This document shows positions 10,029-42,437 of a DNA stretch of 50,785 bases, piece after piece; positions within the stretch are counted from its first letter, which is position 1; each line of letters begins with the position of its first letter. The translations under genes and the position numbers were made by a program. The notes under the pieces were generated by a model. It made no database searches. It was not told the DNA's origin and saw nothing but the letters and a program-made list of their open reading frames with translations. The DNA lies in NCBI GenBank assembly GCA_050012475.1, contig JBEKHC010000043.1:1-50785 (forward strand). Direction: 5' to 3'. Source of the DNA: Candidatus Velthaea sp. Lineage in GTDB: Bacteria; Vulcanimicrobiota; Vulcanimicrobiia; Vulcanimicrobiales; Vulcanimicrobiaceae.

Positions 10029-10122
10029 AACATAGCGGTGCGGGAAATCGCAAACATTGTCCAAGCGGTACGCGTCCGTGCCGCTCGGCTCACCAATCGA
10101 CAAGTTGTTAGTCCGTCCTAAG
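10029..10122 (-). promoter_or_regulatory. conserved 94-bp element upstream of nifI1 (copy A)
   Basis: Aligns without gaps to 42344..42437(+), ~61/94 identical by hand, including GCGTACCGCTTGGACA; ends in -10-like TATGTT. Confidence 0.7.
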
Positions 10123-10181
10123 TAGCCTTCGGCGAACGGCCTTGGCCGCAGCCGAAGCCGGCTTCGGGGCGCAAGAACCTG

Positions 10182-10613
10182 CTAGGGGTGCTGCTCTTCG
10201 GCGTCGTGCGGGTTGCCGGGAAGGTTGCGCATCCAGTTCGCCATGTGCGCGAGCTCGGCGAGGACCTTGGAACGCGCTTCGGGATGTGCCACCGAATCTT
10301 CGAGCGCGCATCGCATGCAGTGCACCCAAGCGTCACGCTCGGCCTCGCCGATCGCGAAGCCGATATGGCGGCTGCGCAGTCGCGGAGGGCCTTTCTTCGC
10401 GGAATAGAGTTTCGGGCCGCCCAGCCACTCGCCGAGGTATTCCTTGAGCACTGCTTTGATCGTTCCGAGTTCGCGCGTGTGCATCGCCCGGATCGTCCGG
10501 GCTTCGGGAAACGTGTTCATTCGGGCGTAAAAAGCTTCCACCAATCGATCGACGCCGGCCGCTCCGCCGATGAAATCGAACAAAGAAACCTCACCCATCG
10601 TCGCTTCAATCAT
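10182..10613 (-). CDS. glbO: group II truncated (2/2) hemoglobin
   Basis: FDFIGG...RLVEAFY, WLGGPKLY, PRLRSRH..F.IG..ERDAW. Confidence 0.9.
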   Translation of the reverse strand: MIEATMGEVSLFDFIGGAAGVDRLVEAFYARMNTFPEARTIRAMHTRELGTIKAVLKEYLGEWLGGPKLYSAKKGPPRLRSRHIGFAIGEAERDAWVHCMRCALEDSVAHPEARSKVLAELAHMANWMRNLPGNPHDAEEQHP

Positions 10614-10769
10614 CTTCTCTCCCTTTGCTGCAACCTTCCATTTGGCGAACGCATGCGCGTGAATTCAGGATACCGTTCATTGACACGCAACCGAGCCGGA
10701 TGATAACGTGCCCATAGGGGGCTCGCGTTCGAATCGAGTTCCCATCCTGCATACTTTTTACCGCAGTGT

Positions 10770-10785
10770 CGGCGCGGCGTTTGCA
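10770..10785 (+). promoter_or_regulatory. sigma54-type -24/-12 promoter candidate for fdxN
   Basis: CGGCGCGGCGTTTGCA, GG-N10-GC with TTGCA, ~40 bp upstream of start. Confidence 0.5.
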
Positions 10786-10824
10786 GGTTTTCGGCGACAC
10801 GAGGCGTCCTAGGAGGGCTGCCAC

Positions 10825-11019
10825 ATGGCCTACAAGATCATTGCTTCTCAGTGCACGGTTTGCGGCGCTTGCGAATTCGATTGCCCAAATGCTGCTATTT
10901 CGCTCAAGCGCGGAATGTACACGATCAATCCCAAGCTGTGCACCGAATGCGAGGGTCATTTCGACTCGCCGCAATGTGCGACGCTCTGCCCCGTCGATAA
11001 CACCTGCGTTCCCGCCTGA
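10825..11019 (+). CDS. fdxN: 2x[4Fe-4S] ferredoxin, FdxN-like
   Basis: CxxCxxCxxxCP and CxxC-x8-CxxxCP; AGGAGG RBS. Confidence 0.9.
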
Positions 11020-11182
11020 GCGAAGCGGCCGCGCGAATCCCGCGCTGACCGATTGTTCCGTGCCGTTCGTCCGGCTTGCGAGGCAAACGACAATGAGCGC
11101 TCGTTCGTCCGACTTTGCGGACGATCTGTTCGGGCGGTTTCGCCAAAGCCGAAACGCGGCGCACGGCGCGTACGTCTGTTCA

Positions 11183-11573
11183 TTAGAGAATCCGGAGCGG
11201 GGAAAAGCCGGGGTCCCGCCCGAGCACGGTATTTACGGCCCGGCGGACCGATTCGACGGTGAGCGGTTTGGCGGCAGTCGCGGACGTCGTCCGTGCACTC
11301 GGCCACGAGCAGCACCCTCGTCTGAGGAATTTCGCGGGCGATCTCGTCGAACACACCAGCACCGTGTTCGCGCACGACCGCTGAGCCGAGCACGATGAGA
11401 TCGACTTTTCGTCCGGCGGATTTCGCGATCGCTTCGGCGACGGTAGCGATCTCATGCGTTTCATTCTCGTCATGCAGCATGAACTGGATGGCCGCGCGCG
11501 TTATCTCGTCGCTGTCGATCACGAAGATGCGTTTGTTTTCCAGGGCGCGCGAAATCTCAACTCCGATCTGCAT
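11183..11573 (-). pseudogene. nif-associated single-domain response-regulator-like protein, frameshifted by small deletion
   Basis: Receiver-like N-part (KRIFVIDSDEITR...VDLIVL...RVLLVAE) in one frame; KPLTVESVRRAVNTVLG C-terminus in another frame ending 11183; break ~11285. Confidence 0.7.
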
Positions 11574-11629
11574 ACGAAACCCTCAAGAAGCCGCTAACGC
11601 TAAAGCCATTCGGTGAGAGCAAACGCACT

Positions 11630-11707
11630 CGGCTCGCGGCCAAACCGCAAACGCCACGGCGGCTCGGCGCAGCCCAACGCAAAGGATTCGGCGCAGCCGA
11701 AATGCAC
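11630..11707. repeat. REP-like palindromic repeat (family A, degenerate tandem)
   Basis: CGGCTCGCGGCCAAACCGCAAACGCCACGG...TTCGGCGCAGCCGAA. Confidence 0.5.
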
Positions 11708-12580
11708 TTAGCCACCGGCGGCCACGGCCTGCGCGGCAACCAGGCCGCGGCTGGTCTCAAGGGCCGCCGCGAAATCCTCCAGCCGCGTATCGATCCGCTC
11801 GATGTGCTGCTCGGTCAAGAAGCGCAGTTCGTTTCTGGTCGGCTGCTCGGGAAGCACGGCCCAATGCCTGGCCGATGAGCGTTTCATGATCTGCCGCGCG
11901 AAGATCCGATCGAGCTGCGTTGCGAACCGGCAGCCGAGGAACAGGAAATGCCGTCCGGTCCGCAGCTGCTGAACTCTCTCGGGAATCGGGGTTTGGATAT
12001 CGATCTCGGTGAGCACTTCGACGAAATCGGAATCGGACACCAGAAAATTTGCGGCCGGCGAGACCGATCCGAACGGCTGGTACAGCAGCGTATCCCACGC
12101 GGCGTCATCGACCGGTCTAGCGCCGGCTTCAAAGTAGTGCACCCAGCTCCCGAAGTGCTCCGCCTGGCTGACGCCTTGCGCGCTGCCCCAGCTCGTTCGA
12201 GCGGCCAGTGCGTTCTGCGGAAGATCGTCGTACCAAGCATGAACCAGCAGCGGAAGCACCGGCAGCGCGGCCAGCAAGCGGTGCAAATCGGTTGGGGGGA
12301 CGGACGCCCGGAACGCTTCGGTCATGGCCGATTTCACGGTCCGGCGGTGTTTGAAGTTTTCGATGAACTGTGCTGCGGCGGTGAGGTTTTTACGAATCTT
12401 GTGCGGCACGGTCGCCTTTGCGGTAAGCCGCTCTACGAGCGCCAGCGGCGAAGCGGGCAGCGGGCAGTTCTCGCCCGCCAGGCTGAGAAGCCCGGGACCG
12501 AGGTAGGGCACGGCGTGCCCACGGTCGAGTGCGGCAACGATTTCGTGCATCGTTTGAGTTGGCAAGACGAGTTCAGTCAT
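11708..12580 (-). CDS. nif-associated SIR2-like (SIR2_2) protein
   Basis: VPYLGPG at N-terminus, LVSDSDF, FLFLGCRF motif. Confidence 0.8.
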   Translation of the reverse strand: MTELVLPTQTMHEIVAALDRGHAVPYLGPGLLSLAGENCPLPASPLALVERLTAKATVPHKIRKNLTAAAQFIENFKHRRTVKSAMTEAFRASVPPTDLHRLLAALPVLPLLVHAWYDDLPQNALAARTSWGSAQGVSQAEHFGSWVHYFEAGARPVDDAAWDTLLYQPFGSVSPAANFLVSDSDFVEVLTEIDIQTPIPERVQQLRTGRHFLFLGCRFATQLDRIFARQIMKRSSARHWAVLPEQPTRNELRFLTEQHIERIDTRLEDFAAALETSRGLVAAQAVAAGG

Positions 12581-12637
12581 GTTTGCTCCGGCTGCTGCGC
12601 TTTCGCAGCGGCCCTAGAGGGCTGCGCTACGTGCAGC

Positions 12638-12693
12638 CCGTCGCGTTCGGGCTTCGCCCGAGCCGCCGTCGCGTTCGGGCTTTGCCCGAGCCG
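12638..12693. repeat. 2x28-bp tandem hairpin repeat (family C)
   Basis: CCGTCGCGTTCGGGCTT(C/T)GCCCGAGCCG x2; same unit at 21106. Confidence 0.8.
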
Positions 12694-12731
12694 CCCATGG
12701 ACTTGCGGCCGATCCGTTCGCTCGCATCGCA

Positions 12732-13883
12732 TTAGTAAATCGCCGACCCGGCGCCGACGTTCGTCGACGCATCTTTCAGCGTTCCAACCACGAACGCAAT
12801 TTGGTCCTCATCGAGATGGCCATGGAACGGAAGCGCGACGGCGCGGTCGGATATTTTTTCGGCCGTGATAAAGTCGCCGCGCCGGCAGCCCATCTCGATG
12901 TAGCAGGACTGAAGGTGCAGCGGCACGCTGTACGGCGCGGCCTGGATGCCTTCGGTCTTCAGATCGTCGACGATCGCGTCGCGGCTCGAGCGCGAGAATC
13001 GCGCTCCCAGCTGAGCGAGATACAAAAACCAGTGGATCTCGTCCACGCCCGGTGCAACATACGGATCCTTGATGCCCTCGAACGACTTGACGTATTTGAA
13101 GTACAAGCGTTCGGTGCGCTTGCGGCGGGCGAGGATGCCGTCGATCCGCCGCAGCTGTTCGAGGCCCAGCGCCGCGGCCACGTCGCTCATCACCGCCGCA
13201 TAGGGCGCCGAGGCACCGGCGACCTCCGAAGACCGCTCTTTGGTGCGGTGCGTCCGCAGACCGCGCAGCTGCGAGGCGATCGTATCGTCGTCGGTTACGA
13301 TCATACCGCCCTCGCCGCACACCAGCGGCCCGGGCTGCGAGAAATCAAAGACCGCGCAATCGCCGAAGCCGCCCACGCGGCGGCCTCCGTAGACCGAGCC
13401 GATCGCCTCCGTCGAATCTTCGATCAGCACTAGGCCGCGACGCCCGGCAAGCTCGCGGAACTCATTCCACGGAGCCGGATGGCCGTTGGCGTTACCGGCA
13501 ATGATCGCGCGCGTTTTCGGCGTGATCCGGGCCTCGGCTTTCTGCGGTGAAAGCGTGCCGGCCCAGTAGTCGATATCGGCAAAGCGAGGAGTTGCGCCGG
13601 ACAGGGCGATCGCGTGCGCGGCTTCACGCCAGGAATGCGGCGAGGCGATCACTTCGTCGTCGCGCCCGATGCCGTAGGCTTTGAGCGCGAGCAGCACGCC
13701 GAGTGTCCCGCTGGAAACCGCGATCGCGTGAGCGCGGCCCGTGTACCGGGCGAACGCAGACTCGAATTCCGCGGTCGCCGGACCGCCGCCGGACAGCTGC
13801 GGTGATTGCAGGACAGCCCCGACGGCCGCCAGTTCCGCGGTCGAGATGTCGGGGTCCGAGAGCAGGATCGCGGTTTGAATCAT
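12732..13883 (-). CDS. DegT/DnrJ/EryC1/StrS-family aminotransferase-like protein
   Basis: FE..FA.Y.G..HAIAVSSGT, LIEDSTEAIGS, GEGGMIVTDD, ALPFH; usual PLP-lysine position reads SQPGPL. Confidence 0.85.
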   Translation of the reverse strand: MIQTAILLSDPDISTAELAAVGAVLQSPQLSGGGPATAEFESAFARYTGRAHAIAVSSGTLGVLLALKAYGIGRDDEVIASPHSWREAAHAIALSGATPRFADIDYWAGTLSPQKAEARITPKTRAIIAGNANGHPAPWNEFRELAGRRGLVLIEDSTEAIGSVYGGRRVGGFGDCAVFDFSQPGPLVCGEGGMIVTDDDTIASQLRGLRTHRTKERSSEVAGASAPYAAVMSDVAAALGLEQLRRIDGILARRKRTERLYFKYVKSFEGIKDPYVAPGVDEIHWFLYLAQLGARFSRSSRDAIVDDLKTEGIQAAPYSVPLHLQSCYIEMGCRRGDFITAEKISDRAVALPFHGHLDEDQIAFVVGTLKDASTNVGAGSAIY

Positions 13884-14152
13884 GGCTTCGCGGCGACCAC
13901 GACGCCGGTTGCGCGAGCCGGGTCTGCCGTGAGGCGCCAACAATGATCGCTTGCGTCAACGAGATAGAGATTAAAGCGCTCGTAGACGCGAAACGGCGGC
14001 TCGACGCCGAGATCCGACACATCGCAGCGCGTCAGCGAGAGCTCCGGAAAATCCTGACGAAAGCCGGCCAGCCAGCCGGAGCCGGCATCCGGTCCGCCCA
14101 GCGCAGCGTCGATCTTCGTCAGCGCAGCTTCGTTCAACGCCACGTCAGTCAT
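13880..14152 (-). CDS. conserved nif-associated hypothetical protein
   Basis: 90 aa ORF coupled to neighbours; LTRCD.SD...YLVD..DHCW.LT.DP..ATG.V pattern. Confidence 0.7.
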   Translation of the reverse strand: MTDVALNEAALTKIDAALGGPDAGSGWLAGFRQDFPELSLTRCDVSDLGVEPPFRVYERFNLYLVDASDHCWRLTADPARATGVVVAAKP

Positions 14153-14363
14153 CGACGACCGCGAGACGGCGCGCTTCGACGGTGATCGGCAGTGTCGTCT
14201 CCGGGCTCATGACGGGCAGTTCCAATCGCCAACCGTTTGCCAGCGTGACCAGACCGCCCCACATCTGCGGCTTTTCAATGGTCACGATCGGCTCTTCGAG
14301 GTCTTTCTTGGCAATATATGCCGATAACGCGCCCTCGGCGTTCTTGCGGATCATGACTTTCAT
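14145..14363 (-). CDS. nifT: nitrogen fixation protein NifT/FixU
   Basis: MKVMIRK...LSAYIAKKDLEEP...WGG.VTLANGW...LPITVEA. Confidence 0.9.
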   Translation of the reverse strand: MKVMIRKNAEGALSAYIAKKDLEEPIVTIEKPQMWGGLVTLANGWRLELPVMSPETTLPITVEARRLAVVDD

Positions 14364-14373
14364 GCGGTATCCT

Positions 14374-14703
14374 TCATTGCCAAAATATCCGCTCGGGGTC
14401 GTTCTTCAACGAGTCGAGCAGATCGGTAAGCCGCGCGTTCGCGGTGTGCAGTTTCCAACTCGCGCTGGCATGGTCTTTGCAGTACATCCGCCACCGTCCG
14501 GAGGGCAGCCGCTGCAGCAACGCAACGTCGACCATTCCGCCGGCTTCGTCGACGCGCCGGGAACAGCACGGGCTCTCCACGAGGATCCCGTTGGACACCA
14601 TGCGCACCGACGGGCTCACGTAACGGTAGCGCTTTCGCTTATCGATCGCGCGCTCGATCAGTCTGCGCTCGAACTCGTTGACCTCCGGCAGCTCGAGGGT
14701 CAT
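14374..14703 (-). CDS. nif-associated DUF3024-like protein
   Basis: RKRYRYVSP.V...SPCCSR.VD..GG..D.A...DPERIFWQ. Confidence 0.7.
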   Translation of the reverse strand: MTLELPEVNEFERRLIERAIDKRKRYRYVSPSVRMVSNGILVESPCCSRRVDEAGGMVDVALLQRLPSGRWRMYCKDHASASWKLHTANARLTDLLDSLKNDPERIFWQ

Positions 14704-14939
14704 GCCGGTGCGAGCTCCCCCTCGAGGCAGCCGACCACGCGATTCGCACCGAACTCGACCAGATAAACGGGCGTGTTCGATTCCGTATGCGTGCCGACTT
14801 GCACGACTTCGCCGCTGTCGCCCTCTTGCACCAGCAGTGCCTCGGGCGGGCACTCCGGGAACGAGCCGTCGTTATAGAGATCGAGAAGCGCCTGCACGCG
14901 CTGTCCCCACTGAAATTTGGGGCCGACGGGCTCCATCAT
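14700..14939 (-). CDS. nifZ: NifZ family protein
   Basis: PKFQWGQRV.A..DL.NDGSFP...G..GEVVQVG...Y.VEF...VVGC.E.EL. Confidence 0.85.
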   Translation of the reverse strand: MMEPVGPKFQWGQRVQALLDLYNDGSFPECPPEALLVQEGDSGEVVQVGTHTESNTPVYLVEFGANRVVGCLEGELAPA

Positions 14940-15250
14940 TCCGCATCCTCCTCGGTGGCGGGTTTCGCTGCACTTTCCGAAGCCCAATCGGCTTCGAGTT
15001 CTTTGCGCTTCATGCCGACGCGGTAACCCCGGGCTGGGAAGTCCACGCCGTAGATGTAGAATTGTTGCAGAAACGTCCCGATGCTGACGACGTAGCCCTC
15101 GTCGCCCTTCTTGACGAGGACGTCACCGATGTCTTTACCGGGGAACGTTCCATCGTTGCGGATCGTGCGGCGCGAGCGCACGCGCGCGCCGTAGTCGTAC
15201 ACGGGCGGCCCGTCGAGCTCGACGATGTCGCTGTCGCGCGCGATGTTCAT
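14936..15250 (-). CDS. nifZ: NifZ family protein
   Basis: IRNDGTFPG...G..LV.KG..GYV.SIGTFLQQFYIY.VDF. Confidence 0.9.
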   Translation of the reverse strand: MNIARDSDIVELDGPPVYDYGARVRSRRTIRNDGTFPGKDIGDVLVKKGDEGYVVSIGTFLQQFYIYGVDFPARGYRVGMKRKELEADWASESAAKPATEEDAE

Positions 15251-15789
15251 TCGTCTTCTCCCGCAGCCGCGGCCGCCAGGACATCGAGGAGCACGCGCGC
15301 TCCGACCTTGTCGGATGGGTCGAGTTCGAGCAGCTTGCTGACGGCTTGATGCCCCTCTTCGAGATGCCCAACCCGCATTTGCAGATACGCGTACGCCTTG
15401 AGCGTGAACAGGAAAAATCGCGGCAGCCGGGCATCGTAGCTGCTGAAGTCGGCGTCTTCCGATCGCACGTGGCGCCAGTCCGCGTGCAGACCGTTCTCGC
15501 GAGCTGCCTTGATCAAACAGATTCGCGCTATCTCCAAAGCCTCGCGCAGTCGTCCCTTGTAGAAGTAAAACCGGTATTGGGCGATCAGCACCGCTGCGTG
15601 GTCGGGCGCGAGCGCTTTGGCGTCGCGAAGATGCTGTTCGGCGATCGTGCCGTTTGCGTACGACAGCGACGCATCGTAGAGATGCCGGCGCGCCTCAAAC
15701 GGGAGATCCGCGCCCAAGAGCGCGTCGGCAAGCCGAGCACTCTCGGTCGTTCGGGGGTCCCGCAGGAGGGTCTCGCCGGCAACGGTCAC
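15247..15789 (-). CDS. nif-associated TPR-like hypothetical protein
   Basis: Helical repeat pattern, YRFYFYKGRL..AL, KLLELDPSDKVGA. Confidence 0.7.
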   Translation of the reverse strand: MTVAGETLLRDPRTTESARLADALLGADLPFEARRHLYDASLSYANGTIAEQHLRDAKALAPDHAAVLIAQYRFYFYKGRLREALEIARICLIKAARENGLHADWRHVRSEDADFSSYDARLPRFFLFTLKAYAYLQMRVGHLEEGHQAVSKLLELDPSDKVGARVLLDVLAAAAAGEDE

Positions 15790-15793
15790 CGCT

Positions 15794-16165
15794 TTATCGC
15801 TTTGCGCTCGGGAATGTCCCGAGGCTTACCAGTTCCACGGTTGGACTCGACGACGTGCCGCACGACGAACCGCTGCTCTTCGGATCGCGGAAGACGAAGC
15901 CGGACTCGGTGGGCGAGTCGGCACAGTCGATCGTCACGCCCTCCAAGAGCAGGCGGCTTTCCACCGGCAGGAAGATGTTCAAGCCGTTGTGTTTCAACAC
16001 GGCGTCGCCGGCAAGCTGTTCACTCACGGTGTCGAATTTCGCTTCGAGCCCCGAGCAGCCGCCCGGACTGACTTCCAGACGAAACCCGCCGCCGGCCGGC
16101 ACATTGGCGAACCGGATCATGCGCCGGATGAACTTCTCGGCCGCCGGCGTAATCGCAATGTTCAC
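15794..16165 (-). CDS. hesB: HesB/IscA-family Fe-S carrier
   Basis: ITPAAEKF...FRL.V.PGGCSG...GF.F.DP; start codon (GTG 16165) uncertain. Confidence 0.8.
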   Translation of the reverse strand: MNIAITPAAEKFIRRMIRFANVPAGGGFRLEVSPGGCSGLEAKFDTVSEQLAGDAVLKHNGLNIFLPVESRLLLEGVTIDCADSPTESGFVFRDPKSSGSSCGTSSSPTVELVSLGTFPSAKR

Positions 16166-16173
16166 AGCGGCAC

Positions 16174-16398
16174 TTACACCGCCGCCTGGTAACGCGGCAC
16201 CGACGTATCGATGATGCACGTGTTGTCGACCGGGCAGGCCGCCACGCATTGGGGTTCATCGAACCAGCCGATGCATTCGGTGCACTTCTTGGGGTTGATG
16301 ACGAACGTTCCGTTCTTGGGGGTGATCGCCACGTTGGGACATTCCGGCTCGCATGCGGAGCAGGCGGTGCATTGTGACGTTATGATCTTATAGGCCAT
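16174..16398 (-). CDS. fdxN: nifB-linked ferredoxin FdxN
   Basis: [12 protein letters not shown]...CTEC...QC..ACP; GGAG RBS; directly after nifB. Confidence 0.9.
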
Positions 16399-16426
16399 TG
16401 AAAAGTAACTCCTGTGTTGGTTGAAA

Positions 16427-17995
16427 TTATGCGGCGGTAAAGGCGCCCTGGCGTAGATCGGCATCGCCGCGTTCGATGTGCTCGAGTTCGCCGCGCTGCA
16501 CCTTATCGAGGTAGTGGCGGAACCACGAGATGGCCGACTGCTCGATGAACTCGAGCGCGTATTCGTCGACGGGATCGATGCCGGCCGCCTGCAGCGTGTC
16601 TTTGGGGCAGCCGCCGATCTTGGCGACGAACACGGCGTGGCAGTCGTTGATCGCGCGCACGATCGTGGCGAGACTATCTTCTTCGCCGAAGCCGCCTTGG
16701 CAGTACAGATCGACGCGCCGGTGGCCGACGAACTTCGCGCCCGCCGTACTCAGTTCGTAGACCTGAAATTCTTTGGCGTGGCCGAAGTGCTCGTTGATCC
16801 GGCCGCTGCCCTTGGTGGCGACGGCGATGAGGACCTTGATATCGCTCATCTCGCCGGCGAGCGTTTCAAGTTCGGCTTGCCGAGCCGCAACCTTCGCTTC
16901 GCGTTCGTCTTCCACTTTGAGCTGATATGCCTTGCGCGTTTGGGAGTCGTACTCGACGTCCATCGCCATGATCTTCTCGGTGCTGAATTCAGCGCTGCGA
17001 TCTTCGCCCAACAGACCCACGGCGTCCGCCCGGCATTGCCGGCAGTGACGCATCATGTTCATCTCGCCCTCGCAACTGTCTTGCAGCGCCTTGAGCTCTT
17101 GAGCCGAAGGGCCGCGTTGACCGGTCAATCCAAAGACGGTTCCGTGCTCGGGCGCCGAGATCAACGGCATGATGTTGTGAAGGAATGCGCCGCGGGATTT
17201 CACCGCTCGATTTACCTCGACCAGATGCTGGTCGTTGACGCCGGGAATCATGACCGAGTTGACTTTGCAGAGAATGCCCCGCTCCGTCAGCATCTCCAGC
17301 CCCAGCAGCTGCCGTTCGCTCAGGATCCGGGCGGCCTCCACACCCGTGTAGCGCTTGTGCTTGAAGAAGATCCAAGGGTAGATCTTGGCGCCGATCTCCG
17401 GATCGACCATGTTGATGGTGATCGTGACGTGATCGACGTTGAAGGCTTTGATCGTATCGACGTGATCGGGGAGCATTAGGCCATTTGTCGACAGGCACAG
17501 CTTGATGTCCGGCGCAGTCCTGGCAATAAGCTCGAAGGTTTTGAAGGTCTTCTCGGGATTCGCGAGCGGGTCGCCCGGACCGGCGATGCCGAGCACCGTC
17601 ATCTGCGGGATCGTGGAGGCCACGGCGAGGACTTTCTTCGCGGCCTGTTCGGGCGTCAGCTTCTCGCTCACGACACCGGGGCGTGATTCGTTGGCGCAGT
17701 CGTACTTGCGGTTACAGTAGTTACATTGAATGTTGCAGGCTGGGGCAACCGCGACGTGCATGCGGGCATAGTGATGATGCGCTTCTTCGCTGTAGCACGG
17801 GTGGTTCTTGACCTTTTCCCAAATCTCGGGAGCAAGATCGTTCGCGCCGGCGCCCGAACCGCAACTAGATTTCCCGCTGGCGCCCTTGGTGCCGCAACCT
17901 TTTTGCTCGGCGACTTTCTGCATCATTTGATCCGGCGTTGGGATCGCGTTCAGACGAACTTCTGAGAAGTTCGATAGTCCGATCAACTCTTGCAT
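16427..17995 (-). CDS. nifB: FeMo-cofactor biosynthesis radical SAM protein NifB with C-terminal NifX-like domain
   Basis: [30 protein letters not shown] motifs; GAGGAG RBS before ATG 17995. Confidence 0.97.
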
Positions 17996-18036
17996 GCTCG
18001 CTCCTCGTCTTTCATCCATACTGACATTAGCGGAAA

Positions 18037-18052
18037 TGCAAGCCACGGGCCA
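18037..18052 (-). promoter_or_regulatory. sigma54-type -24/-12 promoter candidate for nifB operon
   Basis: TGGCCCGTGGCTTGCA on minus strand, close to TGGCACG-N4-TTGCW. Confidence 0.6.
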
Positions 18053-18472
18053 TTCGGTGAATCATTTGTCCAAAGCCTCAAAACATTGTATGGGCGCTCA
18101 ATACATGTCTAATCACCTTAGGATTATTAAGCTCAATATGAACTTTATGAGGAATTGCCCCTTTTGAGCACGGGTTACGAGTGGATGGAGAAAAGTAAGT
18201 AAAATATGAATAATACGGACAATTGCACTTGTCCGACGTTGTGAATAAGCGCAGCGAGAAACCCATGGCCCGATGTCGAGTGCGCCCATGACCCATGCGC
18301 GCTATTGTATGGACATCGTACATCCCCGATCCGGCACGAGCCGAACGTTATCCGCCTTTGCGGCGGCGTTGATACGGATGCGGATGTATGGCGGCTAGAC
18401 CGCGATTTATCAGCCTCGGCCCGCTAGGGGCAGTCGAAGCCAAACCCTTCATTCCAATTTACGGAATCATAA

Positions 18473-19384
<912 letters not shown>

Positions 19385-19399
19385 CTTGCGTGCCGAGGG

Positions 19400-19439
19400 C
19401 CGTTCCGCCGCCGCCTTTTGACGGCGAACTCCGGAACGG
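19400..19439 (+). other. nifH-nifD intergenic stem-loop
   Basis: CCGTTCCG...CGGAACGG with inner stem; possible mRNA stability/processing element. Confidence 0.45.
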
Positions 19440-19473
19440 TCCGATGCGCTTCTTTTATTAGGATAGGAACGTC

Positions 19474-20976
19474 ATGAGTCTCACGACTGAGGATAGCACC
19501 GAAGACCTCAAAGCTCGCAATCAAGCCCTCATCGCTGAGGTCTTGGAAGTCTATCCGGCGGCCACGGCCAAAAGACGCGCCAAGCATCTAGGAACATTCG
19601 AAGAAGGCAAACCGGATTGCGGCGTCAAGTCGAACATCAAGTCGATCCCCGGCGTGATGACGATCCGCGGCTGTGCGTACGCCGGGTCGAAGGGCGTGGT
19701 TTGGGGCCCGATCAAGGACATGGTTCACATCAGCCACGGCCCGGTCGGCTGCGGCCAATATTCATGGGGATCGCGCCGGAACTATTATATCGGCACGACC
19801 GGCGTGGACACGTTCGTGACGATGCAGTTCACCTCCGATTTCCAGGAAAAAGACATCGTCTTCGGCGGTGACAAAAAACTCGCCAAGATCATGGATGAGA
19901 TTGAGGAGCTCTTTCCGCTCAATAAAGGCATCACCGTTCAATCCGAGTGTCCGATTGGGCTCATCGGCGACGACATCGAGGCCGTTTCCAAGGCCAAGGC
20001 CAAACAGTTCGGCAAGACGATCGTCCCGGTCCGCTGCGAGGGCTTCCGCGGCGTGTCGCAGTCGCTCGGACACCATATCGCCAATGACGCCGTTCGCGAC
20101 TGGGTATTCGATAAGCTCACCGGCAAACCGGTGCGCTTCGAGAGCACGCCCTACGACGTTGCGATCATCGGGGACTACAACATCGGCGGCGACGCCTGGT
20201 CCTCGCGCATCCTGCTCGAAGAGATGGGCTTGCGTGTGATCGCGCAGTGGTCGGGCGACGGCAGCCTAGCCGAACTCGAGGCGACGCCCAAGGCCAAGCT
20301 CAACGTGCTGCACTGCTATCGCTCGATGAACTACATTTCGCGCCACATGGAAGAGAAGTACGGCGTCCCGTGGGTCGAGTACAATTTCTTCGGCCCCACC
20401 AAGATCGAGGAATCGCTGCGCAAAATCGCCGCTCACTTCGACGACAAGATCAAGGCCGGCGCGGAAGAAGTGATCGCCAAGTACAAGGCGCTCACGGCCA
20501 AAACGATCGAGAAATATCGCCCGCGTCTGGCGGGCAAGAAGGTCATGCTCTTCGTCGGCGGTCTCCGTCCGCGGCACGTCATCGGCGCCTATGAAGATCT
20601 GGGCATGGAAGTGGTCGGTACGGGTTATGAATTCGGCCACAACGACGACTACCAGCGGACGACGCATTACGTCAAAGACGGAACGCTGATTTACGACGAT
20701 GTGACCGGCTACGAGTTCGAGAAGTTCGTCGAAAAGGTTCAGCCCGACTTGGTCGGTTCGGGCATCAAAGAGAAGTACGTCTTTCAGAAGATGGGCGTGC
20801 CGTTCCGGCAGATGCACTCTTGGGATTACTCGGGTCCGTACCACGGCTACGACGGCTTCCCGATCTTCGCCCGCGATATGGACATGGCAATCAACTCCCC
20901 CATTTGGAAGTTGGCAAAGGCGCCGTGGAAGCAGCAGCCGGCCGCGTCCACCCCTTCATCCGAGTCAGCTGCTTGA
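19474..20976 (+). CDS. nifD: nitrogenase MoFe protein alpha chain
   Basis: [37 protein letters not shown]. Confidence 0.99.
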
Positions 20977-20980
20977 TCTA

Positions 20981-21084
20981 GGGATGCTCCCAATTCACCC
21001 TGGACGTCATCGCTGCGCGGCTCATTTGCTGAAGCAAACTTCGCCGCTATACGCCTCGCCGGGACGAAATGGGAGCATCATCCC
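20981..21084. mobile_element. MITE-like element (family B), copy 2, opposite orientation
   Basis: Reverse complement of 7707..7807 core (GCGGCTCATTTGCT..AGCAAACTTCGCCGCTA), GGGATGCTC end. Confidence 0.75.
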
Positions 21085-27728: not shown

Positions 27729-27929
27729 CTTGCCACACAATTACCTGCGTCAACAGCTTGCCGAATGGCCCGTGAGATTTCCGTCAACACGTGTTAGCGT
27801 ATAAAAAAGAGTGCAGCTTTCATCGAGCGCATAGTAGTGCTTTTCAGCGGTTGGCCAAAGCTGATCGAAACGACGAGAGCCGATCATTGGGACACCGCGC
27901 GGTGCACATGATCGCGAAAGGAGCAACAA

Positions 27930-35054: not shown

Positions 35055-36196
35055 ACGAACAGCTGCCGCGCGTCATCATCAACGACTCGACGTTACGCGA
35101 CGGCGAGCAGGCGCCGTCGGTGGCCTTTACCGCTGAGGAGAAAATTCGCATCGCGCTGGCCTTGGAGCAAGCCGGTGTCGACGAAATCGAAGCCGGCATT
35201 CCGGCGATGGGTGACGCCGAGATCGACGTGATCCGTGCGACGGGCCAATCACTGCGGCGCGCCAAGGTGATCGCGTGGGGCCGAATGACGCGAGCGGACG
35301 TCGACGCTGCCGCCCGGACCGGCGTCAAACGAGTCAACCTTTCGGTTCCGCTGTCGGACGTTCAGATTGCGGTCAAGTTCGGCAGCGACCGCGAAGACGT
35401 GCTGCGGCGCATTCGCGACGTGATTCCGTATGCGCGCGAGCGCGGCTTCGAGGTGTCGCTGGGCGGCGAAGATGCCAGCCGCGCCGACCTGGATTTCGTT
35501 CGGGCCGCGCTGCTCTGCGCGCAAGGCGCGGGCGCGGTAAAGTTCCGCTTTGCCGACACGCTCGGGATCCTGGACCCGTTCAAGACCGGCGCCGTCTTTC
35601 GTCGCTTGCGCATGTTCACGGACATGGACTTGGAATTTCATGGTCACAACGATTTTGGTCTGGCAACGGCCAACACGCTGGCCGCCATCGCGGCCGGAGC
35701 GTCGCACGCCAGTGTCTGCGTGTTAGGCTTGGGAGAACGCGCGGGGAACGCCTCGCTCGAAGAAGTGGTCGCCGGACTGATGCTGATCTACGCGCGGAAG
35801 ACAGCCGTCGATCTCGCGCGTCTCCCGGCGTTGGCCGAACTCGTCGCGGCGGCGGCGAAACGGCCGATTCCGGCCGCGCAGCCGATCGTCGGCAGTTCCG
35901 CCTTCACGCACGAATCGGGGATGCACGTCAGTGCGTTGCTCAAAAATCCGCAAGCCTACGAAGCGGTGGACCCGGGGCGGTTCGGACGCATTCGCAACTT
36001 CGTCCTGGGCAAACATTCGGGCCGAGCGTCGGTCGTGAACGCCCTCGAGGCGCTGGACCTGACCGCGGATCACGAGAGCGCCGGTCTCATCCTGGGACAG
36101 GTCCGCGCGCACGCCATACGGACCAAAGAAGCCGTCGGTCCGCTCGAACTTCGTCAATTTCACGCCAACGTCAATATCTCGGGAGCGCGTCCATGA
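35051..36196 (+). CDS. nifV: homocitrate synthase
   Basis: DSTLRDGEQ, ADTLG, HGHNDFG.ATAN, GERAGNA, HESG.H, GKHSG. Confidence 0.93.
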   Translation: MNEQLPRVIINDSTLRDGEQAPSVAFTAEEKIRIALALEQAGVDEIEAGIPAMGDAEIDVIRATGQSLRRAKVIAWGRMTRADVDAAARTGVKRVNLSVPLSDVQIAVKFGSDREDVLRRIRDVIPYARERGFEVSLGGEDASRADLDFVRAALLCAQGAGAVKFRFADTLGILDPFKTGAVFRRLRMFTDMDLEFHGHNDFGLATANTLAAIAAGASHASVCVLGLGERAGNASLEEVVAGLMLIYARKTAVDLARLPALAELVAAAAKRPIPAAQPIVGSSAFTHESGMHVSALLKNPQAYEAVDPGRFGRIRNFVLGKHSGRASVVNALEALDLTADHESAGLILGQVRAHAIRTKEAVGPLELRQFHANVNISGARP

Positions 36197-36525
36197 ACGT
36201 ACTCGATCAACTCGCAACGCTGTCGAGCGCTGAGGATTTCTTCACCTTCCTGGACCTCGGGTACGATCCGGCAGTGCTGGATGTCGTGCGGCTGCACATC
36301 CTCAAGCGGATGGGCGAATATCTGCGCAAGAACAAAGCCGCGTTGGCGTTAGCCGACGAGCAAGCCGCGCGTGCTCTGTGCCGAGCGCATCTCGAGCGCG
36401 CGTACAGCGACTTCATCGAGTCGACTCCGCTCGAACAACGCGTATTCAAAGTGCTCAAAGACGCGGTGACGCCGTCTGCGGCGCCGTTGGTACAGCTCTC
36501 CGTCGCGCCCAACGGGCAAGGATGA
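36193..36525 (+). CDS. nifW: NifW
   Basis: LSSAEDFF, V.RLHILKR, AY.DF..STP...RVFKV. Confidence 0.92.
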   Translation: MNVLDQLATLSSAEDFFTFLDLGYDPAVLDVVRLHILKRMGEYLRKNKAALALADEQAARALCRAHLERAYSDFIESTPLEQRVFKVLKDAVTPSAAPLVQLSVAPNGQG

Positions 36526-36526
36526 C

Positions 36527-37396
36527 ATGGACAAGAAGCTGCATATCGTCGTCTGTCTCAAGCAAGTTCCGGACAGCGCGCAGATCCGCGTGCATCCCGT
36601 GACGAACACCATCATGCGCCAGGGCGTGCCGTCGGTCATCAATCCCTACGATCTCTTCGCGCTCGAGGAAGCGTTGCGGCTGCGGGATAAAGTCGGCGCC
36701 GCCGACGTAACCGTGCTCACGATGGGGCCGCCGATGGCGGAGGACAGTCTGCGCAAGGCGCTCGCCTACGGTGCCGATCGCGCGGTTTTGCTGACGGATC
36801 GTCAGTTTGCCGGCTCGGACACGTTGGCCACGACCTATGCGCTCTCGAGTGCGATCAGGAAGATCGGTGAGACCTGGGGTGCACCGCACGTCGTGTTCAC
36901 CGGGAAGCAAACGATCGACGGCGACACCGCGCAGGTCGGCCCGGGCATTGCGAAGCGGCTCAACTACAATGCGCTGACGTACGTTTCGCGCATTGCGTCT
37001 TTCGAGGCCGAAGCCGGAACGATCATGGTCGAACGCCGCGCCGAGGGCGGCGTCCAAGTCCTCACGACTCGCCTTCCGGTGCTCATGACGATGCTCGAAG
37101 ACACCAATGAGATGCGGCGTGGCACGATGGACGACGCGCTGCGGGCGGCCCAGGCCGAGATCGTCATGTGGAGCGCGGTCGACGCGGGCATCCCGGAACT
37201 TACCAAGTGCGGTCTGCGCGGCTCGCCGACGGTCGTGAAGAAAGTGTTCGCGCCGGCCGCGCGCGCCGAAAAGGCAGAGCAAGTTCCGGTCACCGGCCGG
37301 ACCTGGTCGGAGATGGCCGACGACATGATCAACACTATTTTCACGCGTCGCCCGGGTCTCGAGACCGAGCTTCTCGCGCGAACGGAGAACTTCTGA
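36527..37396 (+). CDS. fixA: electron transfer flavoprotein beta subunit FixA
   Basis: [35 protein letters not shown]. Confidence 0.95.
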
Positions 37397-38517
37397 TGAA
37401 CAATGCACCAGGGCCGACACCGCCACGGCCGGCCGGCGGCCGCGCGTCCAAGAAAGCGGAGCTGCCCGAACACCTCAAAGCGTACCGGCACGTCTGGGTG
37501 TTCATCGAGTACGAGCGCGGCGCAATCCACCCCGTTTCCTTGGAACTCTTGGGGGAAGGCCGCAAACTCGCCGACAAGCTCGGGGTGGAACTCGCGGGCG
37601 TGCTGATGGGTTCGTCGCATGCCGATCTGCTGCTCGCGGCGACCGACTGTTTCGAGTTCGGCGCCGACGTGGTGTATTTGGTTACCGACCCTGTCCTGGC
37701 CGATTATCGCAACGAGCCGTTCACCAAAGCGATGACGGACCTCGTGAACACCTATCAGCCGGAGATTCTGCTGCTTGGCGCGACGACGCTGGGCCGCGAT
37801 CTCGCCGGCTCGGTGGCGACCACGCTGCTCACCGGCCTCACCGCCGACACGACGGCGCTGGCGATCGATGAGGAACGGTCGCTTGCCGCGACGCGGCCGA
37901 CCTTCGGCGGGTCGCTGCTTTGCACGATCTACACGCTGAATTTCCGGCCGCAGATGGCGACCGTCCGGCCACGCGTCATGCCGATGCCGGAGCGCCAGCC
38001 GGGCCGCGTCGGACGCATCGTCGAGCAGCCGCTCAATCTGGCCGAGGACGACATCATCACCAAAGTGCTGGCGTTCCTCCCCGATCGCGATTCGGACAAG
38101 GCGCAGCTCGCGTTTGCCGACATCGTCGTGGCCGGCGGACTGGGCCTCAAATCGATGGAGAACTTTCAGCACGTCAAACACTTGGCGCAGGTCCTCGGCG
38201 GTGAATACGGGGGTTCGCGCCCCGTGGCCCACAAGGGTTGGATTCCCGCCGATCGGCAGATCGGGCAAACCGGCAAAACGATTCGGCCGAAACTCTACAT
38301 CGCTGCCGGCATCTCCGGCGCGATTCAACATCGCGTCGGCGTCGACGGCGCCGACTTGATCGTCGCGATCAACTCGGATCCCAACGCGCCGATCTTCGAC
38401 TTCGCTCACGTCGGCATCGTTGCGGACGCAGTGGAGTTCTTGCCGGTGTTCACGGATGCGCTCCGTGCACGCCTGTCACTTCACTACGTTCCGGAAACCT
38501 TTCTGGTAGCGAAATAG
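37396..38517 (+). CDS. fixB: electron transfer flavoprotein alpha subunit FixB
   Basis: [34 protein letters not shown]. Confidence 0.95.
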
Positions 38518-38525
38518 GAGCTGCG

Positions 38526-39742
38526 ATGAAAAAGAAATTCGACGCGATCGTCGTGGGAGCCGGTCCCGCGGGCAACGCGGCCGCCTATACGATGGCCAAA
38601 AGTGGACTCAACGTTCTGCAGCTCGAACGCGGCGAGTATCCGGGATCGAAGAACGTCCAAGGCGCGATTCTGTACTCCGACGCGCTCGAGAGGATCATCC
38701 CGGACTTTCGCAAGAGTTCAATGAGGAACGGCCCAACCGCTACACCATCATTCGGGCGGAGTTCGACAAGTGGTTCAGCCGCCGCGTGCGCGAAGCGGGC
38801 GCTGTCGTCTTGTGCGAAACGACGGTAACTGGCCTGATCAAAGATAAGCACGGCAAAGTGGTCGGCGTGCATACCGACCGCGCCGACGGCGATCTCTTGG
38901 CGGACGTCGTGGTTTTGGGTGAGGGCGTCAACGGTTTGGTCGGGCAATCGGCCGGACTGCGTCCGGAGCTCAAACCCAAAGAAGTCGCCCTGGCGGTCAA
39001 AGAGATGCACTTCATGCCCCAGGACGTGCTCGAGAATCGCTTCAACCTCAAGGGCGACGAGGGCGTGGTCATCGAGGCGATGGGCACGGTAAGCCCGGGT
39101 CTCTCCGGAATGGGTTTCATCTACACCAACAAAGAGTCGATCTCGGTTGGCATTGGCACCCTCGTCTCGGATTTCACCGAGTCGGGCGCGACACCGTACA
39201 GCATGATCGAGGCGTTCAAGAACCATCCCAGCATCAAGCCGCTGCTGGCCGGCTCCGAGGCGAAGGAATACTCGGCGCACCTGATTCCCGAGGGCGGGTT
39301 CAAAGCGATCCCGGATGTGTACGGCGACGGGTGGGTCATCGTCGGCGATGCCGGCCAGTTCGTGAACTCGGTGCATCGTGAAGGTTCGAACATGGCGATG
39401 ACCACCGGACTGCTCGCCGGCGAAACGATCGCGCACTTGCATCACAAACGCCAGAAGTGCAGCAAGGCCAACCTTACGATGTACAAGATGGCGTTGGATC
39501 AATCGTATGTCATGAAGGATCTCAAGAAATATAAGGACATTCCGAACTATCTCCATCAAAACAATAAGACACTGCTCGGGGTGTATCCGCGCCTGCTCGG
39601 CCAGGCCGCGCAGAATTGGTTTCGCGTCGACGGCACGGACAAACAAACGAAGGAAAACGAAATACTGGCGTCTTTCCGTAAGAGCCGATCGCTTCCAGGA
39701 TTGATCGGCGATGCATTGAAGTTTGCGAGGGCTTGGCGATGA
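38526..39742 (+). pseudogene. fixC: FixC flavoprotein, frameshifted by internal deletion at ~38711
   Basis: [13 protein letters not shown]...IIPDFR in one frame joins directly to [14 protein letters not shown]...FARAWR in another; the ~30-residue segment normally between them is absent. Confidence 0.88.
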
Positions 39743-40065
39743 ATCCGGTCGAAATACTTACTGCGCTACCAGAAAGCAGAATCGTGGTGAACGTTGAGGA
39801 CAAACTGTACACGAACCGCTATCAAGTCGATGCCGGGCGTCCGCACATAACCGTCAAGCCGCACGACAAGCCGTCGAAGGCGCTGTTGTCTTTGACGACG
39901 ACGTGTCCCGCAGGCTGCTACAGCCTCAACGATAAGGGTCACGTGGAGATTGCCGTCGACGGATGCTTGGAATGCGGCACGTGCCGCGTCGTTTGTGCCG
40001 CGACGAAGGACATCGAGTGGAGCTATCCGCGCGGCGGCTTCGGCGTTCTTTTCAAGTTCGGCTAA
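39739..40065 (+). CDS. fixX: ferredoxin-like FixX
   Basis: [41 protein letters not shown]. Confidence 0.95.
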
Positions 40066-40172
40066 GCGCGGTGCGTCAAGCCGGCGGCAGCGGAGCGTCG
40101 TAGCGTACATTTCTTCAACGGTACTTTGATTCGCGTTGTGTTCCGCTGGGGCGTCGCTTCTCAAGCGCTTCA

Positions 40173-40273
40173 GGGATGCTCCGGTTTAACCCTGGCCGAG
40201 GAGCATAGCGGCGAAGTTTGTTTAGCAAAAAAGCCGCGTAGCGACGACGTCTAAGGCTAAATCAGAGCATCCC
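40173..40273. mobile_element. MITE-like element (family B), copy 3
   Basis: GGGATGCTC...GAGGAGCATAGCGGCGAAGTTTG...AAATCAGAGCATCCC, 101 bp. Confidence 0.78.
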
Positions 40274-40557
40274 TTGATGAGAACAAGCAGTGGACAAGTG
40301 TCGATTGTCAGTTTCAACGAGCCATGCTCTGAAGTGAGGGCCGGCCTTGAAGCGTAGGCGATCGCCAAGCCGAATTACCACAATAGCTGTTGCGCTCGGT
40401 GAACCTGACCAATGTGCTGCAATTGCCATAGCCGGGACATGCAAAAAGCGCAAGAATAGCTCATCGACTTCAGCCTCAGTGCATGAAAACATGATAGTAA
40501 GTTGTGTCGGCCCGCTGGAGCCAGCCGGCATGAACTTATGCGAACAGGAGTAGACAA

Positions 40558-41463
40558 GTGGGTAACGTGACATTTTCTTCCCCCGTTTTAGCGCGGGACA
40601 TCACCGTCTATGCCGTGGCCGGCGATCGCGGCACCATTCTGGCAGTGGCGAAGGAACACAAGATTCCGATTCCGTTCGATTGTCAGGACGGCGAATGCGG
40701 TTCGTGTCTGGTCGAGGTCAAACACCTCTCGGACACCAAGTGTGCCATCGCGCTTACCGAGAAGGAAAAAGAGATGCTCCGCCAGCTCGGGAAGATCACG
40801 CGCAAAGAAATAGAGAATGCGGAAGTCAACGACATGCCGCCGCGTTACCGCTTGGCTTGTCAGTGTTTCGTGCGCAACGAAGATATCATGGTCAACTTCG
40901 TGGGCGACGAAACGCTGCCCGCCCAGAAGCCGCATCTCACGCCCGCGGCAAAGATCTTCAAAGGCGGCCTCAAGCCCACGTCGATCGACGATTTCCTCGG
41001 CTACGCCGTGAAGGTTGAAGAAGACGCGGCGCTCCATTTCGAGAAAATGTCTGCGGCGATGGAGGAATGCGGAAACCACGAGGTCGCCAAGCTCTTTGCT
41101 CAGCTGGGCAGCTTTTCGCGCTTGCACTTGGCCGAGGCGCAGCGACGCGCGGGCGCGATCGACGCCGCGGTGACCGTTCCGCCCGACTACGTTTGGCCGG
41201 AGCACGCGACTCCCGAGCGCACGTCTTTCTTGGCCGGTGATCCGCACCTGTCGCGCCTGGACGCCCTGCGCGCGGCGCTCGTCGGTGAAGAGCGCGGCTA
41301 CGAGTTTTACTACGCAGTTGCGGGCACGACGAGCAATACCGATATCCGCGACCTTGCACTCGAATTCGTCAAAGAGGAAGCCGAACACGTCGCGGTGCTC
41401 AAAGCCTGGATCACCCGCGAGGAATGGGCCTTGAAGACCGCGCAAGTGACACAACTTGTTTAG
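40558..41463 (+). CDS. FeSII (Shethna protein II)-like [2Fe-2S] domain fused to rubrerythrin/ferritin-like domain
   Basis: FSSP...AVAG.R.T.L..A....IPF.CQDG.CGSCLV...LT.KE...GK...PP.YRLACQ matches the recalled Azotobacter FeSII pattern; C-terminal helical bundle with E-rich motifs and EEAEH. Confidence 0.8.
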   Translation: MGNVTFSSPVLARDITVYAVAGDRGTILAVAKEHKIPIPFDCQDGECGSCLVEVKHLSDTKCAIALTEKEKEMLRQLGKITRKEIENAEVNDMPPRYRLACQCFVRNEDIMVNFVGDETLPAQKPHLTPAAKIFKGGLKPTSIDDFLGYAVKVEEDAALHFEKMSAAMEECGNHEVAKLFAQLGSFSRLHLAEAQRRAGAIDAAVTVPPDYVWPEHATPERTSFLAGDPHLSRLDALRAALVGEERGYEFYYAVAGTTSNTDIRDLALEFVKEEAEHVAVLKAWITREEWALKTAQVTQLV

Positions 41464-41501
41464 CGCAGCATCAACGTTCGGCCGCCCCGCGAGGCAACCG
41501 T

Positions 41502-41996
41502 ATGCAATCGATTGAGGAATTTCTCGCCTATGCGATCCATCTCGAACGCGAGGCAATGGACCGTTTCGGCGAACTCGCCGACTCGATGGCCACCTATGGC
41601 AACGCCGAAGTGGGAAAGCTGTTTCGGCGTCTGTCGGAATATTCGCGGCTTCATCTTGCGGAGGCCCAAGCGCGCGCCGGATATCGCGAAATTCCGGAAC
41701 TGCGGCCCGACGAATTCAATTGGCCCGATTTGGAAAGCCCGGAGGCGGCGGCCATCTGGGCCGCGGATCCCTTCATCGGCCGGGAGCAGGCATTGCACAT
41801 TGCCCTGGCGGCTGAGGCGGCCGGTCTTGCGTACTACCAGAGCGTTTTCGACACGGCGACCGATCCGGAGATCAAGGTGCTGGCAAAGGAATTCGTCGAG
41901 GAGGAAAGCGCTCACGTCGCCGAGCTGGAACGATGGATCGCCCACCACAAGGCCGGCAAAAAGCTGCCCGTCGACGGAAAGCTGCTCGCGCGCTAA
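41502..41996 (+). CDS. rubrerythrin/ferritin-like protein
   Basis: Homologous to C-domain of preceding gene (FLAYA...E...SRLHLAEAQ...WP...PE...EFVEEESAH). Confidence 0.85.
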   Translation: MQSIEEFLAYAIHLEREAMDRFGELADSMATYGNAEVGKLFRRLSEYSRLHLAEAQARAGYREIPELRPDEFNWPDLESPEAAAIWAADPFIGREQALHIALAAEAAGLAYYQSVFDTATDPEIKVLAKEFVEEESAHVAELERWIAHHKAGKKLPVDGKLLAR

Positions 41997-42343
41997 CAGA
42001 AAGAGCGCACGTCGATCGGTGATTGAACGTCACCGCTTGAAAACGCCGATCGAACTTGCGACGCGGCGGTCGCTCGGCGTACTTGCAGACCGCTTCATTC
42101 CGAACGGGTCGAAGCGAGAGACTCCGGTCAGCGCCTGCCGGCTTACCGTTTGACGGGACCGAACGCGTTTGCGGCGTCGCTTCGATCGTTCTCCCGTGTA
42201 TTGGCACGGTTCTCGACCAGCGACCGCTCCGATTGGCTAAATCGAAATGCGATCCATTGTGCGAAGTGATTACTTCGTTGTATCCGCGGGCGAACGCTGC
42301 GTAGAAGTACCGCGTCCTCAACAGAAAACCGGCGCCGCATGAG

Positions 42344-42437
42344 CTTAGGACGACCTAACCGTTTGTCCATTGGTGGAGTCAGTCATTGATGTGCGTACCG
42401 CTTGGACAGTGAGTGAGATGTTGCGCCGCGTTATACT
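42344..42437 (+). promoter_or_regulatory. conserved 94-bp element upstream of sufR copy (copy B)
   Basis: Ungapped match to 10029..10122(-); ends in -10-like TATACT. Confidence 0.7.

Follow-up and report, generated by a model that had tools for sequence, protein, structure and literature searches.

A 50,785-nt stretch of the genome of Candidatus Velthaea sp., a member of the Vulcanimicrobiota, or Eremiobacterota (GCA_050012475.1, contig JBEKHC010000043.1, positions 1 to 50,785 of the forward strand; the window in what follows), carries a full molybdenum (Mo) nitrogenase cluster comprising nifBHDKEN together with nifQ, nifV, nifS, suf and fixABCX genes. Near both ends of these nif genes lies a 94-bp element in inverted orientation, of which copy A (10029-10122, minus strand) faces nifI1, nifI2 and an oxidoreductase gene and copy B (42344-42437, plus strand) faces a paralog of sufR. 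On comparative evidence, each copy is very probably a promoter of the sigma70 type, dependent on a nitrogen activator of the host. Since the operator box is common to amtB, gltB and nif/anf promoters, and NifA, sigma54, NrpR and actinobacterial GlnR were not found in the genomes searched, a host nitrogen regulon that is not nif-specific is the most likely driver of three nitrogenase types. Among lineages that lack NifA and sigma54, the control of nitrogenase genes is understood in few (cyanobacteria, Paenibacillus and methanogens). Read from the alignments, the box described here is a novel operator that serves control of a familiar kind.

The original prediction had described the two copies as an ungapped inverted pair of about 61/94 identity, and realignment of 10122 to 10029 (minus) with 42344 to 42437 (plus) bore this out, conserved blocks included, at 61/94 identical positions. 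When the 61 shared columns were scored on both strands of the 5.36-Mb genome, around 10.7 million positions, which is also the number behind all ranks given below, both copies scored 61 and no other position exceeded 36. A third copy in the genome was not found by nhmmer (next-best E = 1.7), and a blastn comparison of one copy with the other gave E = 0.008. The possibility of many unrelated copies across the genome, raised earlier as a sign of a generic repeat, was thus checked and only two copies were seen. Identity falls to background in the flanks (23/100 and 27/100 over 100 nt per side). The perfect 16-mer emphasised before is present in both copies, its only two occurrences in the genome, but it does not generalise, as other promoters retain just part of it. 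Both copies are intergenic and each faces a start codon, with 68 nt between the end of copy A and the nifI1 ATG (9961) and 128 nt between the end of copy B and the ATG of the sufR paralog (42565).

A matrix built from 33 non-nif promoters of other genomes gave the box TT-N3-C-N4-GTCGAA-TG. The ideal operator is a degenerate palindrome, TTCGAC-N4-GTCGAA, followed by TG, a spacer of 20-21 bp and a TAnnnT hexamer, and its reverse-complement score peaks at one shift (-1.4 versus about -30). If transcription starts 7 nt after the -10 hexamer, near 10022 and 42444, the operator centre would lie near -43 (-42.5/-43.5), with the last bases of the operator filling the -35 position; the -35 hexamers themselves are poor. 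In copy A, on the minus strand, the -10 hexamer TATGTT (10029-10034) has TAnnnT counterparts at the same place, within one base, in the aligned promoters. The putative proximal operator, near -43 and reaching the -35 position, occupies 10055-10073 (score 4.0; rank 112 together with the -10), and the distal operator falls within 10087-10112, as 10112-10094 in a 39-bp register (score 10.3) or 10105-10087 in a 32-bp register. In copy B, on the plus strand, the alignment places the -10 hexamer TATACT at 42432-42437, the proximal operator at 42393-42411 (-1.3 alone; rank 241 with the -10) and the distal operator within 42354-42379, where the 39-bp register (42354-42372) scores 15.4 and is identical to the proximal site at 12/19 positions. 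Over 11 nif elements the non-nif matrix peaks at the proximal site and then 39 and 32 bp upstream, with means of 0.8, -5.0 and -5.9 against -28.8 +/- 7.6, and the sites span about -92 to -33. The distal register is 39 bp in copies A and B, at nifK of genome G155 and at anfH, and 32 bp in the metagenome loci L069 and L071 and in genomes G007 and G152.

The overlap of the box with the -35 position, and the likeness of the ideal palindrome to winged-helix repressor sites, would also suit a repressor operator that is released under nitrogen shortage. This is an improbable reading: the -35 hexamers are poor, and the spacing between box and -10 stays at 20-21 bp from gene to gene and from family to family, a constancy that activators require and repressors do not. 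A structured cis-acting RNA can be set aside with near certainty: copy B does contain the complementary blocks TGTCCA/TGGACA, but folding is close to that of shuffled sequences (z = -0.69 and -0.03), no consensus pairs are found in 12 sequences, there are no Rfam matches, and the element lies upstream of its own -10.

The assignment to a nitrogen regulon rests on the genes that carry the box outside nif clusters, in genomes from across the class. In this genome the non-nif matrix ranks an arginine-dihydrolase-like gene first, amtB second and nifH 16th. The best untrained match in this genome also lies before the arginine-dihydrolase-like gene, whose product stays below family cut-offs. Other high-scoring positions (on contigs C6, C23, C36, C60, C136 and others) resemble background and lie mostly within coding sequence. 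With a term for the distal site added, copy B ranks 4 and copy A 7. A strict pattern, searched in 57 genomes with the reversed pattern as a control, gave 23 matches versus 2, and 16 of the 23 precede amt (9), arginine dihydrolase-like (5) or gltB (2) genes, the remaining 7 looking like chance. A second pattern gave 27 matches versus 5 for its control in 149 genomes, of which 19 lie before amt (12), gltB (5) and dihydrolase-like (2) genes, five more before outer-membrane uptake genes (3 porin, 2 TonB receptor) and 3 before others. The two sets overlap in part, and four genomes flagged as unpublished were excluded from the counts. When amt genes were picked by family, the proximal box was found 21 bp before the -10 in 6/8 loci, and in two other families it was found in 6/7 full-length amt loci, at -117 to -119. 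Upstream of gltB, picked by protein in 6 genomes, the score was 25.8-27.3 in three, 9-10 in two (this genome included) and -5 in one. The porin and TonB-receptor cases comprise the loci L263-L265, L272 and L273, and in the promoters of the beta-barrel porin genes the box is accompanied by another site, 32 bp upstream.

With regard to nitrogenase loci, a survey of 348 genomes of the family found 6 with nifH. G231 has the same cluster as the window (NifK 87% identical), and in G007, G017, G152 and G155 NifK is just 39-42% identical to that of the window. The closest solved relatives of the window NifD are the Gluconacetobacter and Azotobacter enzymes (E about 1e-265 to 1e-252), and those of the G017 NifD are entries from Clostridium pasteurianum. 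G152 additionally has an Fe-only cluster (AnfG, AnfO); this locus, L055 (G152:C2:145001-165000), contains anfH, D, G, K and O without anfA and shows the same promoter architecture. The Clostridium-type clusters of G017 (L050/L049) and G155 (L056/L057) are rearranged, in the order nifK-E-N-B-(V)-orf-nifH-I1-I2-D, and have a two-site promoter ahead of both nifK and nifH.

A profile of the two copies matched upstream of nifK (G155, G017) and anfH (G152) with E values from 4e-4 to 0.01. An automatic ungapped search covered 500 nt ahead of each of 11 nif-type genes from G007, G017, G152 and G155. Seven nifH/nifK/anfH regions matched 33, 27, 39, 29, 33, 30 and 32 of 62 columns in register with the -10; against the maximum of 30 in the control (300 of 1419 upstream regions; mean 25.9, standard deviation 1.35), four lie above, one ties and two fall below. 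In all seven a TAnnnT hexamer recurs at a common position, give or take one base. A first ranking, with a matrix from seven nif promoters, put the two copies at ranks 1 and 2, which is inflated for copy A because the training sites had been chosen by likeness; in a control with matrices from the best-matching control regions, copy B (46.9) is beyond this selection bias and copy A is not. For the window cluster itself, G231 retains copy B before the same gene with a 1-nt insertion, and the metagenome loci L069 and L071, with close nifI1 genes, have ungapped, diverged copies of A upstream of nifI1. These two were the only loci with the element among 80 metagenome nifI1 loci, most of the others belonging to distant organisms. 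On the alignment and these orthologs, copy A is taken as a probable two-operator promoter of nifI1-nifI2-oxidoreductase and copy B as that of the sufR paralog.

The nif and anf promoters share a block upstream that the alignment does not show at amtB, including an extra inverted repeat, TTAG-N6-CTAA, recognised by eye at 42345-42358 (plus strand) and at 10121-10108 in copy A. This, the ambiguity of the distal register (39 versus 32 bp) and a perfect 9-bp inverted repeat in the upstream block of the G017 nifK promoter leave some room for two inputs, with the proximal box read by the host nitrogen factor and the distal block (TTAG-N6-CTAA plus CTAAC...ATTG) by a nif-specific or oxygen-sensing factor. 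Such a division of labour is a possible but not a probable arrangement, as the distal blocks of copies A and B outscore the proximal ones with the housekeeping matrix, a second site 32 bp upstream also occurs in 2/33 housekeeping promoters, and the fetched nif clusters have no regulator in common. The earlier proposal of a multi-site promoter for a nitrogen/oxygen regulator that replaces NifA-type control stands as far as the nitrogen promoter is concerned, on comparative evidence, but the control appears to be host-wide instead of confined to nif.

Several observations weigh against a host nitrogen activator acting through this box. The box is absent before the glutamine synthetase genes examined, and in a third amt clade it was found at 0/12 amt genes. 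The right half of the consensus, and partly the left half, was fixed by the search patterns, and the genomes are related, so the counts are not independent. The proximal boxes of both copies are weak alone, and the spacings of the distal site used for two-site scoring derive from the elements themselves. Of the 11 upstream regions tested, four did not rise above background, nifI1 is found without copy A in G231, L070 and L072, and the matrices from control regions gave copy A scores of up to 35.9, above the 32.7 obtained with the real nif promoters.

Within the island, five promoters appear to carry the box, copies A and B being those with the full distal block. The other three are candidate single proximal operators with a -10 hexamer: upstream of nifH (18264-18308, plus strand; TATTGT; conserved in G231), upstream of nifB (18018-18062, minus strand; a weak CAGTAT; score 4.4; conserved in G231 by eye) and upstream of the nif-linked iscA-sufBCDSU operon (27756-27800, plus strand; TAGCGT; conserved in G231). 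A relaxed pattern, loosened after the nifB site had been seen, matched 4 times in the window, always at island promoters (nifI1, nifB, iscA-suf and the sufR paralog), versus 0.27 expected. The AT-rich, 440-bp nifB-nifH intergenic region (18046-18330) also contains a palindrome, GGACA-N8-TGTCC (near 18219-18236), that is not kept in G231, and an 81-amino-acid open reading frame with no family match.

The way in which these promoters would work can be pictured as follows. A dimeric protein would bind the degenerate palindrome around 43 bp before the start, overlapping the poor -35, and, as in class II activation, bring in RNA polymerase at the -10 hexamer, 20-21 bp downstream; activation over repression, nitrogen as the signal and cooperativity between sites are what we infer. 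At amtB, gltB and the arginine-dihydrolase-like gene one strong site each would suffice, and at the nif promoters a weak proximal site would be aided by the distal one, 32 or 39 bp away on the upstream side, with the result that nitrogen shortage might have to be deeper before these are switched on. Copy A would then drive the NifI switch-off proteins together with the oxidoreductase, and copy B a duplicate sufR stripped of its own operator. With regard to transcription, contigs from four metatranscriptome runs, all belonging to the same study, include near-identical pieces over oxidoreductase-nifI2-nifI1 up to 9962, and copy A is not covered among the pieces listed. These contigs are silent on the start site, because they carry neither start nor strand, some pieces are unlisted and DNA may be present.

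The genes downstream of copy A (nifI1, nifI2 and an FAD/NAD(P) oxidoreductase; 7807-9961, minus strand) are 75-82% identical to those of the Clostridium-type nif cluster of G017; nifI1 and nifI2 encode two P-II-family proteins, and the third gene, called fprA previously, is an FAD/NAD(P) oxidoreductase by Pyr_redox_2. Copy A thus probably arrived with nifI1-nifI2-oxidoreductase from the Clostridium-type cluster of the host lineage, judging by these identities, and a duplicate of it would then have replaced the native operator of the duplicated sufR. The sufR paralog (42565-43233, plus strand) is 85% identical to the housekeeping sufR, with a SufR-family match below cut-off, and almost all of its relatives come from Vulcanimicrobiota/Eremiobacterota; its native operator is absent and copy B stands in its place. 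Binding of the element by SufR itself, which the position of copy B before this paralog might suggest, is very unlikely, as a palindrome of another sequence, AGTCnAG-N6-CTnGACT, precedes housekeeping sufR in the relatives compared and occurs once in the window, at 47566, and the box lies before amtB and gltB but not at housekeeping suf. The palindrome at 47566-47585 (AGTCAAG-N6-CTGGACT), between sufC and a leaderless sufR and conserved in relatives, is likely the SufR operator of this phylum. The nif-linked suf operon has no palindrome of the SufR type ahead of it, and the SufR paralog made from the nitrogen promoter may act on housekeeping suf during nitrogen fixation.

The comparison with congeners defines the borders of the nif island within the housekeeping suf locus: by this reading, it extends from about 7.2 to 43.6 kb, with a sufU duplicate at each end. 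In G002 and G003, corA (in G003 also yip1) directly adjoins sufU-sufS-sufD-sufC-sufR, and in the window around 36 kb separate two sufU copies. The left duplicate (7176-7700, minus strand) is 79% identical to 43659-43958, and congeners have a single sufU here; the right one (43658-44053, minus strand) marks the right end of the island and the start of the housekeeping suf locus. Both copies therefore lie inside the island. The original prediction had offered, as an alternative, eroded terminal inverted repeats bracketing a cassette of 10.2-42 kb, for which the opposite orientation of the copies, close to either end of the nif genes, would speak, and had proposed to look for island borders in related genomes. 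The borders were found at the sufU duplicates and not at the copies, which lie 2.3 and 1.2 kb inside them; moreover, synteny with G231 runs past both copy positions, no target duplication of 2-13 nt was found at the copies, and the same architecture occurs singly at unrelated nif loci, leaving terminal repeats with hardly any probability. By the island ends there are repeats resembling repetitive extragenic palindromes (REP; at 7117 and 43575-43646), with no integrase at those ends. Three intergenic island sites (7704-7811, 20976-21079 and 40197-40278) share a palindromic repeat of around 100 bp, REP-like or similar to miniature inverted-repeat transposable elements.

Elsewhere in the window, the segment upstream of copy A (10182-11573) contains a truncated globin, a small ferredoxin-like gene and a receiver-domain protein; G231 lacks this globin, and the segment may be an oxygen-related module. 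A short phage-integrase-like fragment (3996-4442) lies left of corA, outside the nif island, and a metallo-beta-lactamase-fold protein (50043-50687), under every named family cut-off, is also present in congeners.

As for the protein that binds the box, searches for the established regulators returned negative results. Sigma54 (PF04552) was found in 0/5 genomes (94-97% complete; controls matched in 4/14), NifA (TIGR01817) in 0/6 genomes over the cut-off, with short domain matches only, NrpR (NRD domain PF01995) in 0/5 genomes and the actinobacterial OmpR-type GlnR (N-terminal domain PF21695) in 0/3 genomes of the host family, with weak matches in 2/2 from other families. Type III glutamine synthetase was found in 0/5 genomes. 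A PucR-type and a Crp/Fnr-type protein appear equally possible as the binder, neither of them being probable, and a protein of some other class has a slightly better chance than either.

The PucR-type gene is single-copy in 49/57 genomes (G000:C5:41520-42755 in this genome, G000) and lies directly before a GSI-alpha-like gene, with which it overlaps (G000:C5:40226-42755, locus L221). In all 16 neighbouring rows, some of which list the same gene twice, the GSI-alpha-like product has Asp for Glu304 and Ala for Arg316, residues that are called catalytic in PMC9249791. The two genes could form a pseudo-enzyme sensor pair, conserved across the class. The element, an inverted repeat directly upstream of the -35 and paired, fits the layout of PucR-type sites. 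Co-occurrence of gene and box is informative in one genome only, G005, which has neither the PucR gene nor a box at amt. There is no box upstream of 12/12 PucR-type genes that would indicate autoregulation, and three runs of complex prediction that paired the PucR-type protein and the altered glutamine synthetase returned 0.00, 0.49 and 0.00. As a tentative proposal, rather less than probable, an undescribed Vulcanimicrobiota nitrogen switch consisting of a PucR-type activator and a catalytically altered glutamine synthetase that acts as glutamine sensor may have taken over, besides the promoter of the duplicated sufR, those of three nitrogenases acquired separately (Azotobacter-type Mo, Clostridium-type Mo and Fe-only).

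For the Crp/Fnr family, whose sites have a 5-6-5 palindrome frame, it is relevant that the ideal site also reads TTCGA-N6-TCGAA, which fits such a palindrome at the class II position. G000 has 18 Crp-type helix-turn-helix matches, none of them tied to nitrogen genes. One has an NtcA-like recognition helix; its gene is split over two contig ends, beside what by eye appear to be bacteriochlorophyll genes. A DUF2249-type Crp gene beside one amt gene of G007 was dropped because its ortholog in G000 has no neighbouring nitrogen gene, and likenesses to the sites of LexA, PafBC and cyanobacterial SufR were also dropped since spacing or target genes did not fit.

By analogy, the closest precedent is the imported nif operon of Paenibacillus polymyxa, horizontally acquired and run by the host GlnR (PMC6191146), which likewise lacks NifA and combines a sigma70 promoter, a global nitrogen regulator of the host and two sites. 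There, glutamine synthetase acts as the sensor (PMC6191146), which is relevant to the PucR lead. In contrast, the GlnR sites (TGTNA-N7-TNACA) are 118 bp apart and flank the promoter, whereas here both sites are upstream, 32-39 bp apart and of a different consensus. NtcA-activated class II promoters of cyanobacteria, with GTAN8TAC centred at about -41.5 (PMC3898017), also place the site of a global nitrogen factor at a fixed distance upstream of a sigma70 -10 and include amt and assimilation genes among their targets. They differ from the operator described here in sequence (TTCGAC-N4-GTCGAA by the column counts of 33 sites), in its centre near -43 and in the second site at nif promoters. The CnfR-dependent nifB/nifP promoters of cyanobacteria, with nif-specific TGAGTACA repeats (10.1101/2025.04.01.646610), are similar in being multi-motif sigma70 nif promoters common to several nif operons; here, however, the box is also found at amtB and gltB, and the CnfR TGAGTACA motifs are absent from the aligned elements. 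The PucR-type GabR of Corynebacterium glutamicum recognises a pair of inverted repeats that lie between -87 and -23, directly upstream of the -35, and binds them better together (PMC7652997). Its paired-site layout resembles the present one (about -92 to -33), but GabR controls one catabolic operon, and a PucR-type global nitrogen regulator is a hypothesis here.

Nitrogen fixation in this phylum has so far only been predicted from genes. For Candidatus Lamibacter sapmiensis of the Eremiobacterota, nifH, nifI1 and nifI2, with genes of clusters III and IV, have been described, and the main text of that paper names no promoter or transcription regulator for these nif genes (PMC11180709); unlike in that organism, the enzyme of the window is of the Azotobacter/Gluconacetobacter type. 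A literature search, with subscription papers outside its coverage, found no publication that deals with either a nitrogen regulon or a nitrogen operator of this phylum. For a phylum that is widespread in acid soil and peat, the present analysis supplies a defined operator together with a list of its target genes and of proteins that are candidates for binding it, and the cultured Vulcanimicrobium could serve as a test via amtB and gltB, if the strain carries the box. Taken at sequence level, the data suggest that borrowed nitrogen-fixation genes have been wired into the nitrogen switch of the host, which would be a natural example of a transferred nif cluster rewired in its new host. That three nitrogenase types appear to have been retuned to the host operator argues for selection on a regulated use of these clusters.

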